A DNA stretch of 10,122 nt from a virus (IMGVR_UViG_2711768040_000012); one strand, 5' to 3'; shown: positions 1 to 9,391, counted from the stretch's first letter. The notes: generated by a model not told the origin, from the sequence alone. Numbers and translations: made by a program.

Positions 1-234
1 ATGAAATCAAAAGACACCCTAAAGTGGTTCCCTGCGCAGCTTCCTGAAGTAAGAATTATCCTAGGGGATGCTGTAGTGGAAGTAGCAAAACAGGGAAGAC
101 CTATCAATACCAGAACATTGCTTGATTACATTGAAGGAAACATAAAGAAAAAATCATGGCTGGATAACAAAGAATTATTACAAACAGCGATATCAGTTCT
201 TAAAGACAACCAAAATTTAAATGGTAAAATGTAA
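1..234 (+). CDS. ynaE: YnaE/YdfK-family small prophage protein (cold-shock-inducible family), 77 aa
   Basis: Complete ORF, ATG at 1-3 and TAA at 232-234. Translation MKSKDTLKWFPAQLPEVRIILGDAVVEVAKQGRPINTRTLLDYIEGNIKKKSWLDNKELLQTAISVLKDNQNLNGKM is recognised from memory as the 77-aa YnaE (Rac) / YdfK (Qin) protein that sits upstream of pin in E. coli K-12 prophages. The ynaE versus ydfK assignment is uncertain. Confidence 0.8.
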   Translation: MKSKDTLKWFPAQLPEVRIILGDAVVEVAKQGRPINTRTLLDYIEGNIKKKSWLDNKELLQTAISVLKDNQNLNGKM

Positions 235-550: not shown

Positions 551-1141
551 ATGTCTCAAATTTTTGCTTACTGTCGGATATCAACGCTGGATCAGACCAC
601 CGAAAATCAACGCCGGGAAATCGAAAGTGCAGGTTTTAAAATCAAACCTCAGCAAATAATCGAAGAACACATTAGCGGCTCAGCAGCAACCAGTGAGCGT
701 CCTGGTTTTAACCGGTTGCTTGCTCGCCTGAAATGTGGTGATCAATTGATTGTGACAAAACTGGATCGCCTTGGTTGTAATGCAATGGATATCAGGAAAA
801 CAGTGGAACAACTGACCGAAACAGGTATCAGAGTGCATTGCTTAGCATTGGGGGGCATTGACCTGACCAGTCCAACAGGAAAAATGATGATGCAAGTAAT
901 TTCAGCAGTCGCTGAATTTGAACGAGACCTTTTACTTGAACGCACTCATTCCGGGATAGTAAGAGCCCGCGGCGCAGGGAAACGTTTTGGTCGACCACCT
1001 GTGTTAAATGAAGAACAGAAACAGGCGGTATTCGAACGAATTAAGTCAGGTGTAAGTATAAGTGCCATTGCCCGGGAATTCAAAACCTCGCGGCAAACCA
1101 TTTTAAGAGCCAAAGCAAAACTTCAGACACCTGACATATAA
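551..1141 (+). CDS. pinR: Serine recombinase, Pin/Gin/Hin/Cin-family DNA invertase, 196 aa
   Basis: Complete ORF, ATG 551 to TAA 1139-1141. N-terminal resolvase/invertase catalytic motif ([12 protein letters not shown], presumptive catalytic Ser11) and C-terminal helix-turn-helix ([21 protein letters not shown]). Recognised as essentially the Rac/Qin prophage invertase PinR/PinQ of E. coli K-12. Confidence 0.95.
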
Positions 1142-1238: not shown

Positions 1239-1814
1239 CTACGGCAGTGCTGGCCATTCAATATCCTGTGCAGTTGACGTATCAACACGGTTCAGCAATA
1301 CCCGATACTTTTTCCATGCTTCCAGCAACGAGATTTCTTCCTCCGTTGCAATTTCCAGATCTGCAGCATCCTGAAGCGGCGCAATATGCTCGCTGGCTAC
1401 CTGCATCAGGCTGTTTTTTGTTTCTTCCGCCTCCCGGATCCGGAACAGTTTTTCTGCTTCCGTATCCTTCACCCAGGCTGTGCCGTTCCACTTCTGATAT
1501 TCCCCTCCCGGCGATAACCAGGTAACATTTTCCGGTAACGGACCGAGTTCAGAAATAAATAACGCGTCGCCGGAAGCCACGTCATAGACGGTTTTTCCCC
1601 GATGATCTTCAACGAGATGCCACGATGCCTCATCACTGTTGAAAACAGCCACGAAGCCAGCAGGAATATCTGGTGGTGCAATATCGGTACTGTTTGCTGG
1701 CAGACCTGTATGAGGCGGAATATATGCGTCACCTTCACCAATAAATTCATTAGTTCCGGCCAGCAGATTATAAATTTTTATGGTCCGTGGTTGTTCACTC
1801 ATTCTGAATGCCAT
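1239..1814 (-). CDS. tfa: Tail fibre assembly protein Tfa, 191 aa
   Basis: Complete minus-strand ORF, ATG at 1812-1814 and TAG at 1239-1241. Translation [24 protein letters not shown]...DIEWPALP is recognised as the TfaR/TfaQ/lambda Tfa family. Its ATG overlaps the stf stop by one base (TAATG), suggesting translational coupling. Confidence 0.92.
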
Positions 1815-4800
1815 TATGCAAGCCTCACAATATAGTTAAATGCGATGTTTTTGACGGTGTTTTCCGCGTTACCAGCAGCGTTAACGGTGATGGTGTGTCC
1901 ATGTGAACCAATCGCAACGGAGTGCGTATGAGCACCAATACCGACAGTATGCGCGTGTGCACCTGCAGATGCTGCTGTGCCGGACAGTGAATGGCTATGA
2001 TTACCATCTGTACTGGTATTCGCTAACCACCCCGTAGACATACCTACTGAGCCTTGTACACCCCAGGTATTTTGACCTGAGCTTGTATAACCATATTGAT
2101 AAGTATCTTTAAAAACACTGGGGTTAAATCGACGGCCATCTCTATGGCTGTGATTACCAGCTGCATTCGTGCTGCCACTTAAACTATGGGTATGCGCACC
2201 AGTGTTATTCGTGGATTTAGTGCCGTAATCAAACGACGATGTGGTTTTCGTCCCCAAATCCGTACTGGATACGCTGGCGCTGTGGGTGTGTGATTTAATG
2301 CCGTCCTGTTCCTGAGACAATACGGCCCGACCACTGGCGGGCTTGCCCTTAATCGTCCAGCCACGCATATCAGGGATCACGCCTGACGGATAAGCGGCTG
2401 CAAGTTTCGGGTATGCAGATTTGTCAAAAGTCTGCCCCTGCATCAGGGCATAACCAGACGGAACGGTATCTGATGGCCACGGGATTGGTGCGCCGACTGG
2501 GTAGCTTTCTGGTGGAAGATTTTTCGAGGTATAAACTTCTGCCCAGTCTTCCTCAAAACCATAGCCATCTCTTGAGGAACGGTAGAACAGACCTCCATTT
2601 CTGTAATGTGCCTTCATCTGCAAGGTCCGGCAACTTCCGACTCCGGTATAGAAGTTAACCAGAATATAGGTGTCGCCAGAGCGGGTGACATTGTAAGCGC
2701 CTGATTCGGCATTCCAGGGAACGCCACCATCCGCATCGGCATATGTATCCGTTGCCCTTCTGGCAAAAGCAGCCACATGCGCGGCGGTTAAAGTAATATC
2801 TTTGGAACCATCAAACTCAACACCAGAAACCCGTCTTGGCGTTTGCAGCTTTGTTGCTGTTAATGCATTACCGTTCAGACTTGCGGACAGTTTGGTTCCA
2901 ATAACCAGTTCGCCGGTTGCGTTATCAATAGCAAACGGTCTTAATGTATTCCAGCCACCATAAACATCACCTTGATTGGTAAGCAGCAGGTAAGTTTTAG
3001 CGCCATCATTACGCCATAATGCCCCATACTCCCCACCTATCATTCGAATCTGATTACCACCACACGCTACAATTTCGTCTGTGGCAAAAAGTTTTTTGCA
3101 CGACAAGTTATCGTTAACGATTAACGAATGAGACTCATAAAAACCACGCCCACTCTTAAAATCAAGGATAACGTCCGCCGCGATACATTCAGTCGCCGGA
3201 TTTGTTGCCCCAAACTTATAGGTCGTATCATTAACAACGAGATCAGCACCAGGTGCGGATATTGACAGGCCATCTTCGATAAACGCAAAAACAGGGAAAG
3301 CAGCGCCATCAACATAGAACACAGAGCGCAAATCATCGCCCTTATTACTCATCATTATTGAGTGGATGGCTCGTTCATTGTTTTGATATTGCCAGAACAT
3401 TCCATAAGCATAACGCCCCCTGTCAGTCCAGCCACCAGGCATAACAAATCCGTTAAACTCGCAGTTATTCATCGGATCGCCTGCGGTTCGCGTTGCCGTG
3501 GTGATAATGACCCTTGATGCCAGTTCGCTTACTGAGCCAGCAGAACGCATAACAACAACAGGGTAATATTTTCCAGATGTTGCACCTGCAGGAGCGTTAA
3601 CCCGCACATAACGCATACCACGCTTATCAGCAAAGTCTGTTTTACTGACCGCGTTAATGTTGTTCAGGAAGCGTCCCTTATCGGGTATATCAGCGCCGTT
3701 CTGGTCTTTCTGCAGACGTTTCTCTGCATTGTCATAGGCTGATTTTACTGCCTTTGGCGTTGCCGCCAGCGTTTCAGACGTCCTCAAGCGCCACGGCGGA
3801 TGCAATATCCTCTGCCCGTTTTGCCGCTGTCTCGGCGCGCGTTGCCGCGGATTCCGCCGTACTTTTGCTCTGTGCTGCCGCCGTCGCACTGCCAGCTGCC
3901 TCTGTCGCCTTCGTGGATGCTGTCGTGGCGCTGACCTTCGCTGCGGACGCTTGTCTGGTCGCCTCATCTTTTGAAGCAGACGCCGATGATGCCGATGACG
4001 CCGCCGAACTGGCGGACGATGCGGCAGCCGTTTTTGAGGATTCTGCGCTGGTTTCCGACGCTTTCGCGTTCGTCTCGGATGTCTTCGCTGCGGAAGCAGA
4101 CCTCGCTGCTGCGCTGGCCTGTTCAGTGGCTTCGCCAGCCTTCGTTGTGGCTGTTGAAGCAGACGATGCGGCACTTTCTGCCGATTTTCCGGCGGCGGTG
4201 GCACTGGCTGAGGCCTGCCCGGCACTTGTTGACGCGGCACTGGCAGACGACGCAGCCGCTGTTTTTGAGCCTGCCGCAGCCGAGGCGCTCTGTCCCGCTG
4301 CCGTTTCAGAAGACCTGGCGTTTGTCTCAGACGTCTTTGCCGCCTTCGCGGAATTGCCTGCCGCCGTTGCCGAGGAAGCGGCACTACTGGCGCTTGATGA
4401 TGCGTTCGTTTCTGATGATTTCGCTGCCTCTTTTGAGGCCGCCGCATCCCGGGCTGAGGTGGCTGCTTCTGACGCCTTCGTGGTCGCGGCGGATGCAGAA
4501 GTGGCTGCTGATTGTTGTGACGCTGCCGCATTCGTTTCTGACGTTTTCGCCGCAGCGGCACTGGTAGCTGCCGCGCTTTTTGAGGACTCTGCAGCAGCAG
4601 CACTTTTCGATGCTTCACTGGCCTTTGTTGATGCCGTTCCTGCGCTGGAAGATGCTGACTGAGCCGACGACGCGGCCTGTCCGGCTGACGTGCTGGCTGC
4701 GCGTGCTGAGCCTGCAGCATCAGTCGCATGGGTTGCCGCCTCACGGGCTGATGTGCCGGCATCGCCGGCTGACTTCTTCGCGGCTGCCGTGTTCTGTGCC

Positions 4801-5159
4801 ACCGCGGACGCGTTACGCGCCACCTCTTCCACCATCAGTTCAAAACGGCGCAGTGCCTCAGGACGGGCATCATCCTCCGTCATGGCACCGAGAAAATCAT
4901 TCAGCGTACCGGGTCGGGAATCTTCATACACGGTGATGGTCCCGGCATGTGACGGCGGGAATCCCTCCACCAACAGAATAACGCTGTACTGCCCGTACTC
5001 AACGTCCATGCTGTAACGCCCGGCTTCATCCGGATTTTCTGAGGCCAGCGTGTTCACCACCACCGTGGTGCTGTTACGTTTTGCTTTCAGCTGGATTGTG
5101 CAGTTCTGTACCGGTTTTCCTGTGCCGTCTTTCAGTACACCTGAAATCTTTACTGCCAT
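1814..5159 (-). pseudogene. stf: Side tail fibre protein Stf, disrupted by a frameshift near 3774-3782 (N-terminal fragment 3774-5159; C-terminal homologous part about 1814-3781 in another frame)
   Basis: N-terminal frame starts at ATG 5157-5159 (MAVKISGVLKDGTGKPVQNCTIQLKA..., lambda Stf-like; the track's 5165 start is an upstream GTG) and stops at TGA 3774-3776 after ...[17 protein letters not shown] second frame carries the rest of the fibre from [23 protein letters not shown] to the C-terminal ...[18 protein letters not shown], stop TAA 1814-1816. The track's 982-aa ORF (1814-4762) is this C-terminal part fused to an Arg/Pro/Gln-rich alternative-frame read of the Ala-rich repeats. Confidence 0.8.
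3777..4830 (-). repeat. Ala/Ser/Thr-rich low-complexity tandem-repeat stalk region inside stf
   Basis: About 350 codons dominated by A, S, T, K, E with recurring units such as AAKTSETNA(R/A/K)SSET and SAASSA. The matching DNA shows degenerate direct repeats of about 27 nt, e.g. gcgttcgtctcggatgtcttcgc near 4067, gcgtttgtctcagacgtctttgc near 4318, gcattcgtttctgacgttttcgc near 4528 (plus strand). The GC-rich repeat keeps several frames open, which produces the artefactual overlapping ORFs. Confidence 0.7.
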
Positions 5160-5893: not shown

Positions 5894-8800
5894 TCAACGA
5901 ATACTGATGCCGGAAGCGGCTTTTTTGGTCACAATCACCGTACAGTCGGTGATATTGCCTGCCCCCTGATTGCCTTTCTGGAAAATCTTAAACTCCAGAG
6001 TGACGCTTCCCCTGCCACTCGGCATATCAATAACTGCACTGTAACTACCGGGAATGGCCCCTTTAGTTTCTCTGGATGCGATTAATACGCCGTTTTTGCG
6101 AACTTCAAAACCATAACCCGTGTATCGCGTGCCTCCTGGGTTATTTCCGCTCCCCGGATCGTCATACGCTATACCGTTAAAAATAATGGGCGGAATAATA
6201 ATCTGGCGGTCAAAGTTATGATCATCGCTGATGGTGACTGTAACCGTACCGTTTGGTGTTTCCGTGTTACCCCACGTACCGACTTTTTTCGGGAAGGCTT
6301 TTGATACAGCTTTAACGAAATCTCCTCTGACCTGGGTCGCCTCCAGCATGCCCTTAATCGTACAGTTCTGGTTAATCGTGACATTGTTGAGCGTTCCTGA
6401 GTTCGCATTCACACTGCCACTGATATCCGCATTTTTCGCCGTCAGTCTCCCGTCTGATGTCAGGGAAAATGCCGGAGGATTACCGCCGCTGGTAATGGTG
6501 GGGGCCGTCAGGCGTTTCAGGAACACTTCATTCATGAATATCTGATCGCCCTGACCAACAAACATCGGCTTTGTGTTGCCATTCGCAGGATTAATCATCG
6601 CAATCCTGTCTGCTGCCAGCAGCACCTGACTCTGCATGCCGTCAGGGGTGTTCTCAATACCGGCACCGATACCCGCAATATAAAGGCGTCCGTCCTGCAT
6701 CTGCTGCAGCTTCACTGCCCACATGCTGTTCAGGTTATTATTTGTATCAACCTGAACCTTCTGTATCTGCTGGATCGCTGCACTCTGGTCTTCCAGTTTC
6801 TTATTGACGGTCTGTGTTATTTCATTGCTGACATCCGTTATGGACGTCCTGATTTCAGTCAGGTCAGGCGCAAGCTGACCGTTATCAATCTGCGTCCACA
6901 GCTCCTGAGCCAGATGGGTTTTCCCTATCTCGCCTTTGAAAAAATCCAGATAGCCTGATGCATCATCACTCGGCTGACCGACAGCCTCCACGAATGCCGA
7001 TTTGCCAACGGTGTTCACACTGCGAACGTAAAAATAATAATCATGGCCCGGTTTGATATTGATACTGGCGGCTATCCAGTACAGTGCCGTACCAAGATAA
7101 CGCGCGCTGGTTTCAACCTGCCTGATATCCGCAATCCGTTTTTCCGAGAACCAGAACTCAAACTGTACCGTCGGGTCATAAACCGCAAGATGCGGCGTGG
7201 CGGTTATCTGAAAATAGCCCGGCGTCAGCTCAATCCGCGACGGCGCTGCCGGTGCGGCAATCCGGAACGATACCGACGCCGGATCGCCCTGCTGCCCCCA
7301 CGCATTTACTGCCCGGACTGTCAGCCTGTAGTTCCCCAGAGCCAGTTGTGTGAAGCGGTAAGTGGTTTCCGTCGTCCGGGCCGTGCTGACCAGCCGCTCA
7401 CGGCCGTCATCCGCTGCCACGGTCAGGCGAAGCAGGAAGCTCACGCCCTTCACCACCTTCGGCGTGTCCCAGCGCGCCAGCACCTGGTATTCCCCGCTGT
7501 CTGCGGTGACTTCGGCGGTCAGGTGCTGCACCGCTGGCGGCGTGACACCATTCACCGTGCCGCTCTGGTCGCCGTCAAAGTGCGCCCCGTTATCCACGAT
7601 GGCTTCTTTTTCCGGTACATGCTGCACGGCGGTGATGGCATACGTGCCGTCGTCGTTATCACGGATACTCACGCAGCGGAACAGGCGCTGGCGCAGCGTC
7701 GGCAGCTTCAGCCCCCACACGCTGTATTCAGCAACGCCGTCAGGAACACGGCTCACTTTCACCTTCACGCCGTCGGTGACGGACTGAACCTCCACGCTGA
7801 CCGGATTGCCACTTCCGTCAACCAGGCTTATCAGCGTGGTACCGGAGGATGGCAGAGTGATTTCACGGTCGAGCGTCAGCGTCCGGGTCTGGCTGTTTAC
7901 CGCCAGCACGCGCCCGCCGGTGCTGATACCGGCATAGTCATCATCGCAGATTTCAATGACATCGCCCGGTACATGGCGAAGCCCTTCAGCACCCACGCTG
8001 AAATCCACGGTCTGCGTCTCCAGCAGTTCCGTTTTAATCAGCCACAGCCCGGCGCGGTGTGCCTGCCCCCGGCTGGTACAGCCAAAGGCATCCATCTTCG
8101 TGACATTACGACCGTAACGGGCAATGGCCTGCGTATCTTCAACAAGCTCTGTCGCCGTCTCCCAGCCGTTGTTCGGGTCAATCCAGTTCACCTCAACGGC
8201 ATTATGGCGGTCCTTCAGGGCGCTGAAACTGTAGCGGAACGGCGCGCCATCATCCGGCATCACCACATTACTGCGGTTATAGGTCCACACCTTATCCGAC
8301 GGTCGGTCCTGCACGAACGTCAGCGTCTGCCCGTTCCATACCGGCATACAGCGCATCGCAGAGCAGAAATCACTGAGCACATCCCACGCCTTGCGCTGTG
8401 TGGTCAGGTACGCATTACAGGTGATGCGCGGCTCCGTGCCGCCAAAACCGTCCGGCACCGACTGATCGCAATGCTGGCCGATGACATACAGCGCCCATTT
8501 GTCCACATCCGCCGCACCAAGACGTTTCCCCATGCCGTAGCGCGGATGGGTCAGCATATCCCACAGACACCAGGCCATGTTGTTGCTGTATGCTGGCTTA
8601 AACGTTCCGTCCCAGATACCGCTGTATTGCCGCGTCTGCGGGTTATAGTTCGACGGCACCTGCAGAATACGCCCGCGCAGATGATAATTACGGCTCACCT
8701 GCTGGCTGCCGAACTGCTCCGAGTCCACCTGCACGCCGACCAGTGCCGTGTTCGGGTAGCCCTGTTTCACATCGATGATTTCGGTGTATGACGACCAGAG

Positions 8801-9391
8801 CGTTTTGTTCTGCAGCTGGTCTGTGGTGCTGTCCGGCGTCATCCTGCGCATCCGGATATTAAACGGGCGCGGCGGCAGGTTATCCACCACAACCGAGGCC
8901 AGATACTGTGAGGTGGTTTTGCCCTTAATGGTGATGTCTTTTTCCGTCACCCAGCCACCGTTACGTTGTATCTGAACCAGCAGGCGGACTTCCGATGGAT
9001 TCCTGTCCCCCTTTGAGGTGGTTTCCACCAGTGCCTGCACGCCGAAAGTAAAACGCAGACGGTCAATGTTTGCCGACGTGATGGTCCGGGTGATCGGCGT
9101 GTCGTATTTCACTTCCGTACCCAGCACCGTCTCGGAGCCAGAGGATTCAAATCCCTCCGGCGGTGTCTGCTCCTGCTCACCGGCCCGGAACACCACCGTT
9201 ACACCGGAGATATTGGTATTCCCCTCACTGTCCAGCACTGGCGTACTGTTCAGCAGCACGCTTTTTAATCCATCCACCGGACCTTCAATCGGCCCTTCGC
9301 TGATGGCATCGATCACACTCAGCAACTGCGTGGACTTCAGGTTGTCCTTCGCTTCGCGCGGAGTATGCCCCTTACTGCTGCCTTTACCCAT
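5894..9391 (-). CDS. J: Tail tip / host-specificity protein J (central tail fibre), 1165 aa
   Basis: Complete ORF, ATG 9389-9391 (GAGG Shine-Dalgarno 5 nt upstream) and TGA 5894-5896. First roughly 820 residues ([45 protein letters not shown]...) are near-identical to lambda gpJ as recalled. The C-terminal roughly 340 residues are diverged and about 33 aa longer than lambda's 1132-aa protein. Confidence 0.95.

Follow-up and report, generated by a model that had tools for sequence, protein, structure and literature searches.

The tail-tip protein gpJ of phage lambda sets the frame for comparison here. In its C-terminal part, FNIII-1/2 are followed by an alpha-helical shaft, a beta-sheet prism known as the central straight fibre, and an Ig-like receptor-binding domain (RBD) that inserts four bottom loops into the receptor, LamB (PMC11101478). 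For Ur-lambda, the rigid part of gpJ resolved by cryo-EM comprises residues 1-807 (PMC12617516). Among lambdoid phages, 434 serves as the reference for OmpC use (PMC12502783; bioRxiv 10.1101/2022.09.30.509847), and for this receptor the passages concerned in both sources cite Hantke 1978. The hybrid lambda h434 imm21 was named for the host range of 434 (PMC9119081). Engineered lambda gpJ chimeras with natural C-termini have been redirected from LamB to OmpC (bioRxiv 10.1101/2022.09.30.509847).

We analyzed gene J in a viral DNA stretch of 10,122 nt (IMGVR_UViG_2711768040_000012), called the window below. The ORF list and translation revealed J as one unbroken reading frame of 1165 amino acids. 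The NCBIfam profile NF049904 (lambda_TipJ, curated cutoff 1950 bits) matched J with 2335 bits over its full length (aa 1-1165 on profile positions 1-1163). The Pfam domains occur in the order FNIII-A_GpJ (86-207), Phage-tail_3 (330-498), Ig_J (610-714), Ig_J_second (716-818), Phage_Tail_Tip (872-1000) and Ig_GpJ_C (1029-1164). This is the lambda-type order of hub, two FNIII/Ig domains, shaft, beta-prism tail-tip fibre and C-terminal Ig-like RBD. Among the ORFs of the window, a partial gene I lies upstream of J, and lom, stf, tfa, pinQ and ydfK lie downstream. Within the tail cluster, J sits between I on one side and lom and stf on the other, as in lambda. A 99.1% identical region of an E. coli chromosome is annotated in RefSeq as H-M-L-K-I-J-lom-stf-tfa-pin and forms the ydfJ/ynfT/ydfK end of a lambdoid prophage. 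By analogy with the lambda structures, we expect J to be a homotrimer that closes the tail tip and forms the central fibre. Opposite-strand ORFs within J (e.g., 6231-6545 and 7043-8791, plus strand) were treated as incidental frames in a GC-rich gene. Feature coordinates are collected in the table.

Table. Features of the window and modules of J (coordinates in the window).
Feature	Position	Strand	Remark
ydfK	1-234	+	window left end
pinQ (Pin-type recombinase)	551-1141	+	window left end
tfaQ	1239-1814	-	window left end
Gene J (tip attachment / host specificity protein), intact	5894-9391	-	1165 aa + stop; ORF list and translation
J aa 1-806: part shared with lambda, 434 and 21 (hub and two FNIII/Ig domains)	6974-9391	-	98% aa identity to each
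J aa 807-960: shaft module of the phage-21 type (alpha-helical shaft, upper beta-prism of the central straight fibre)	6512-6973	-	96.8% aa identity to 21
J aa 836-866: holds the 28 residues that lambda and 434 J lack and phage 21 has	6794-6886	-	alignment gaps
J aa 961-1000: conserved lower beta-prism island with the 21-type to 434-type crossover zone	6392-6511	-	90-95% aa identity to lambda, 434 and 21
J aa 1001-1165: 434-type RBD (Ig-like), putative OmpC binder	5897-6391	-	97.0% aa identity to 434

We aligned the J protein with J of lambda (NC_001416), 434 (OL657226) and 21 (OL657228) and took the domain names of the modules from the lambda gpJ structure (PMC11101478). The alignment divides J into segments with different closest relatives. 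Residues 1-806 are 98% identical to each of the three phages. Over aa 807-960, identity is 45% to lambda, 46% to 434 and 96.8% to phage 21, and the shaft DNA is 95.5% identical to that of 21 over 446 nt. J carries the same 28-residue insert as phage 21, which places it with the phage-21-type long shafts. The next 40 residues (aa 961-1000) are again conserved in all three (lambda 95%, 434 93%, 21 90%). The last 165 residues are 97.0% identical to 434 and 43.5% identical to 21. They have the same length as in 434 with zero indels, and the RBD DNA is 97.7% identical to that of 434 over 528 nt (93-100% per 90-nt window). Compared with lambda J aa 973-1132, the identity is 38.6% with several indels, so this is not the LamB-binding RBD type of lambda. 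A protein search left a clear gap between 434-type tips (at least 87% identity) and other tips (~52-57%).

Informative DNA sites located the change from one parental type to the other. In J nt 2400-2849, 200 of 210 such sites were 21-type and 10 were 434-type; in J nt 3000-3449, 205 of 207 were 434-type. The change occurs within J nt ~2865-2960 (window ~6432-6527), inside the conserved island, which is the pattern expected from homologous recombination in the linker aa 961-1000. The first breakpoint coincides exactly with the end of the rigid gpJ part of Ur-lambda at residue 807. Together with the layout of lambda gpJ, this identifies aa 807-960 as the shaft and upper prism and aa 1001-1165 as the RBD. 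Sequenced phages include all four pairings of shaft and RBD: lambda itself, 434 (lambda shaft, 434 RBD), 21 (21 shaft, its own RBD) and the type in the window. The shaft and the RBD therefore assort independently. Our preferred reading, to which we give a probability of about 0.8, is that J is a three-part mosaic produced by homologous recombination among lambdoid phages, with an OmpC-type 434 RBD and a lambda-like trigger.

The mosaic J is not confined to the window. It was found at full length (3498 nt, 94.6-98.5% DNA identity) in PhiR42_1, phiSTEC1575-Stx2k, ev243, PhiR34_1, Kati, PhiR68_2, mEp332, ev099, Ayreon, cdtI and phi458, and the same mosaic occurs at 95-98.5% DNA identity in at least 15 sequenced phage records. 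In the first seven of these phages, the combined shaft and RBD DNA is 99.6-100% identical to that of the window, and the RBD DNA is 100% identical. The window J is thus nearly identical to the J of plaque-forming phages. Each module is also widespread on its own. Shaft DNA alone has matches in 70 phage records (phage 21, VT1-Sakai and 1717 among them), and RBD DNA alone in 74, including 434, 434B, mEp460, 2851 and many Stx1/Stx2c phages. Complete E. coli genomes were counted when one place covered at least 80% of the 1067-nt shaft-plus-RBD stretch, a length that must span both modules; 1164 of 5426 (~21%) qualified. Judged by these sequence matches, the variant is among the commonest J forms in E. 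coli, ordinary and already known.

Several lines of evidence point to the receptor. The J proteins of lambda and 434 are 38% identical in the RBD and 93-99% identical in all other segments. Since the two differ substantially only in the RBD and use LamB and OmpC, respectively, OmpC is the likely receptor of the window J. The hybrid lambda h434 imm21 has the same RBD type in the RBD DNA search, in which 434, 434B and this hybrid are 97.5-97.7% identical to the window. The homology thus suggests that the window J most likely binds the porin OmpC, as 434 does, rather than LamB. We found no receptor experiment on this J allele in the searchable literature, and a literature search for published receptor data on PhiR42_1, PhiR34_1, mEp332, phiSTEC1575-Stx2k, Kati, IdasGreatGrand and Chlobot, which carry the identical J, found none. 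Phage phi330, which uses OmpC and comes from an EHEC strain, was set aside as evidence for this allele: it has another RBD, reported to be 35-40% identical to that of 434 (PMC12502783).

The earlier note, made from the DNA alone, had described J as lambda-like for about 820 residues, diverging near GYLDFFKG, with conserved islands (MWAVK and two longer ones) and a diverged receptor-binding end marked by lower GC; it proposed a modular swap and a receptor other than LamB. Much of this agrees with our alignment. Identity to lambda is 98% up to about residue 806, GYLDFFKG occupies aa 813-820, and all the islands are present. The comparison with phages of known receptor places the C-terminus with 434, at 39% identity to lambda, and thereby supports a receptor other than LamB, as far as homology to the OmpC-using 434 allows. 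The end that was said to be diverged and receptor-binding is real in its last 165 residues, which are shorter than the ~200 (or ~345) given for it, and it consists of two modules, aa 807-960 and aa 1001-1165. The swap relative to lambda is borne out as well, but as two independently assorting swaps, the first of which concerns the shaft.

These results bear directly on the reading of the note, in which a single C-terminal receptor-binding module of ~345 residues was exchanged and the exchange is marked by a GC drop. It is true that identity to lambda drops from about residue 807 and that the 3' third of J is ~10 GC points below the 5' part. However, the 40-residue island, 90-95% conserved, divides the region; its halves have different closest relatives (phage 21 and 434) and occur separately in 21 and 434. 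Moreover, the first half is shaft and not RBD according to the lambda structure (PMC11101478). The GC argument does not help either. GC in the window J is 0.597 over nt 1-2160, 0.515 over nt 2161-2430 and 0.494 over the remainder from nt 2431, and the same three spans of lambda J give 0.592, 0.522 and 0.539. GC thus does step down across J, but from about J nt 2160 (window ~7230), which lies ~250-270 nt ahead of the first breakpoint and inside a stretch 91-99% identical to lambda; 434 and 21 have the same step in the same place. We therefore rejected the drop as a marker of the swap; the GC step is a general trait of the J gene. Because both segments assort independently, the single-module reading is already refuted, and we regard it as next to impossible. 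A further alternative is that J is a decaying relic of a cryptic Qin-type prophage with no adsorption function, which would make its receptor specificity moot. The window does lie at the ydfK-pinQ-tfaQ end of a prophage, and the adjoining stf has a 53-nt frameshifting deletion. On the other hand, J is a full-length frame with the length of J in isolated phages and 97-98.5% DNA identity to it, over the final 1 kb the identity reaches 99.6-100%, and a near-identical genome has the tail genes I, K, L, M and H upstream. Lambda PaPa still infects without Stf (PMC11101478, PMC12617516). We consider decay of J very unlikely.

The alternative that bears most closely on the receptor keeps the 434-type origin of the RBD and supposes that it has drifted to another or broader specificity, such as one OmpC allele only, OmpC together with OmpF or LamB, or another porin. 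Five RBD residues differ from 434: N1047 (D in 434), R1127 (G), I1136 (V), Q1138 (H) and G1143 (R). Three of these substitutions change charge. Small changes in this family can matter, as a single mutation lets J of phage 21 add OmpC use and further ones add OmpF (PMC11336670), and the gpJ variants A8 and 1A2 accept different OmpC alleles (bioRxiv 10.1101/2022.09.30.509847). In addition, the RBD of the OmpC-binding A8 gpJ is 82% identical to that of the LamB-using phage 21, and the two have different native receptors. From the one-mutation shift of phage 21 and this 82% identity, it follows that receptor calls by homology are not absolute in the gpJ family. Against drift in the window allele stands the 97% identity to 434 over the whole domain, without indels. 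R1127 is the residue of lambda, restored, in the conserved motif DMPxGRG. The documented changes by few mutations mostly add a receptor, with the native one kept at first, although later phage 21 isolates lost LamB or OmpC (PMC11336670). Finally, the identical allele occurs in phages recorded with the host E. coli K-12 MG1655, an OmpC expresser; these are PhiR34_1 and mEp332, whose DNA is 100% identical to the window in the RBD and 99.6-100% in the shaft. We judge such a drift unlikely and retain the reading of a three-part mosaic with an OmpC-type RBD.

We also modeled J aa 800-1165 as a monomer with AlphaFold2. The mean pLDDT was 56 and the model was poor outside the RBD; low confidence is expected for a monomer model of a trimeric fibre. 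The RBD was predicted as a beta-sandwich (pLDDT roughly 64-89). Low-confidence helices spanned aa 811-884, and a helix at the 28-residue insert had pLDDT below 60. The best PDB matches of the model in a fold search were the gpJ fibres 9wca, 8xck, 8xcj and 9wcb, in agreement with the sequence search. For the 28 extra residues, a count of hydrophobicity at heptad a/d positions showed no preferred coiled-coil register. Because of this and the low pLDDT of the helix, we dropped the idea that the insert forms four clean coiled-coil heptads; the model lends weak support to a helical character of the insert.

The structures of the lambda system suggest how such a protein may act. J, as a trimer, would supply the tail tip and central fibre of a lambda-type prophage. 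If it acts as lambda gpJ does in its solved complex with LamB, the bottom loops of its three Ig-like RBDs would dock on a porin trimer, which in this case, as in 434, would be OmpC. As the RBDs spread, the beta-prism would twist and the helical shaft would flip. The FNIII strings would be released and the tail tip opened so that DNA can be ejected. In this scheme, modeled on lambda, aa 807-960 would relay the trigger and would not itself bind the receptor. The lambda-like trigger mechanism is thus proposed for J by analogy.

It is conceivable, if improbable, that the two modules were tuned separately. The five RBD substitutions may set a different OmpC-allele range or allow a second porin, and the exchangeable 21-type shaft, longer by 28 aa, may tune the stand-off distance or the trigger threshold independently of the porin. 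If so, the shaft would be a separately selectable module of host range or defence evasion, instead of a passive spacer.

J also contains a segment known from antiphage defence. A peptide of lambda J (aa 902-933, with the trigger F924) is reported to activate HepS, a prophage-encoded abortive-infection nuclease (PMC13043305). The corresponding peptide is kept in the window J at aa 930-961 (window 6509-6604, minus strand), with 25 of 32 residues identical, and the trigger Phe is retained as F952 (6536-6538). Judging from this conservation, J would probably still trigger HepS.

We made further observations on the surroundings of J. The left end of the window is the ydfK-pinQ-tfaQ end of a lambdoid prophage; in the 99.1% identical genome it adjoins ynfT and a truncated ydfJ. 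A search of the window for inverted repeats flanking a pinQ-controlled invertible tail-fibre segment returned two weak ones (76-80% over 20-21 nt), none convincing, and we discarded the idea of such a segment. The side-tail-fibre gene stf (window 1814-5159, minus strand) is broken. Compared with the intact 1132-aa Stf of E. coli Z0117EC0040, it lacks 53 nt, which removes ...ASTTKKGIVQLSSATNST.... The junction is at ~3781 and the resulting stop at 3774-3776. As a result, the frame that starts at the ATG at 5159 ends with codon 462, which leaves the C-terminal two thirds out of frame. The deletion is reminiscent of the stf frameshift of lambda PaPa; the gene may be a true pseudogene, or the assembly may be at fault. 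The best complete-genome match, NZ_CP098211 (L005), measures 10176 nt against the 10122 nt of the window. The deletion in stf accounts for 53 of these 54 nt, which implies one more 1-nt indel elsewhere in the window. The 5' half of stf (window ~3750-4950) has 57-63% GC and a strong AT skew. It also contains direct repeats with spacings that are multiples of 21 nt (21, 252, 84 and 126), which fits a fibre shaft with a 7-residue period.

The scientific weight of the locus is low. This is textbook lambdoid mosaicism, in a gene with a C-terminal host-range module that geneticists have been swapping since the lambda h434 hybrids. What we add is the exact anatomy, with a 21-type shaft and a 434-type tip joined in the prism island, together with OmpC as the likely receptor and the removal of the GC argument. 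For annotation, the tail tip of this prophage can be described as 434-type and probably OmpC-dependent, not LamB-dependent. Lambda, 434, 21 and the window J form a four-way case in which shaft and tip recombine independently over a conserved beta-prism linker, which is useful for the engineering of gpJ chimeras.

Finally, we compared J with the known systems one by one. Lambda J (NP_040600; 8IYK, 8XCK, 8XCJ) shares the domain order, the hub and FNIII domains (98%), the beta-prism island (95%) and the neighbourhood I-J-lom-stf-tfa. However, its shaft is 45% identical and 28 aa shorter, and its RBD is 39% identical and binds LamB (PMC11101478). Phage 434 J resembles the window J in aa 1-806 (98%) and in an RBD of equal length without indels (97.0%), but differs by the lambda-type short shaft (46% over aa 807-960), which lacks the 28 extra residues, and by the five RBD substitutions. 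Phage 21 J (UMO75436, OL657228) matches in aa 1-806 (98%) and in the long shaft with its 28 extra residues (96.8%), whereas its RBD is 43.5% identical and its native receptor is LamB (PMC11336670). From the J proteins of the phages listed above from PhiR42_1 to phi458, the window J differs by scattered point changes only, most of them within its 5' two thirds. A8 gpJ 713 (PDB 9wca, closed; 9wcb, open with OmpC of E. coli EDL933) is the top solved structure both by sequence (E = 3.6e-105) and by fold search and, as the fibre of an OmpC-binding gpJ chimera, is alike in its overall nature. Its RBD is of another type, however, 82% identical to that of phage 21 and only 44% identical to that of the window. 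Its OmpC contacts are therefore not simply transferable to the window J, and we did not adopt 9wcb as a contact template. Since the A8 RBD is so much closer to that of the LamB-using phage 21 than to that of the window, OmpC use has arisen in at least two RBD types of J.
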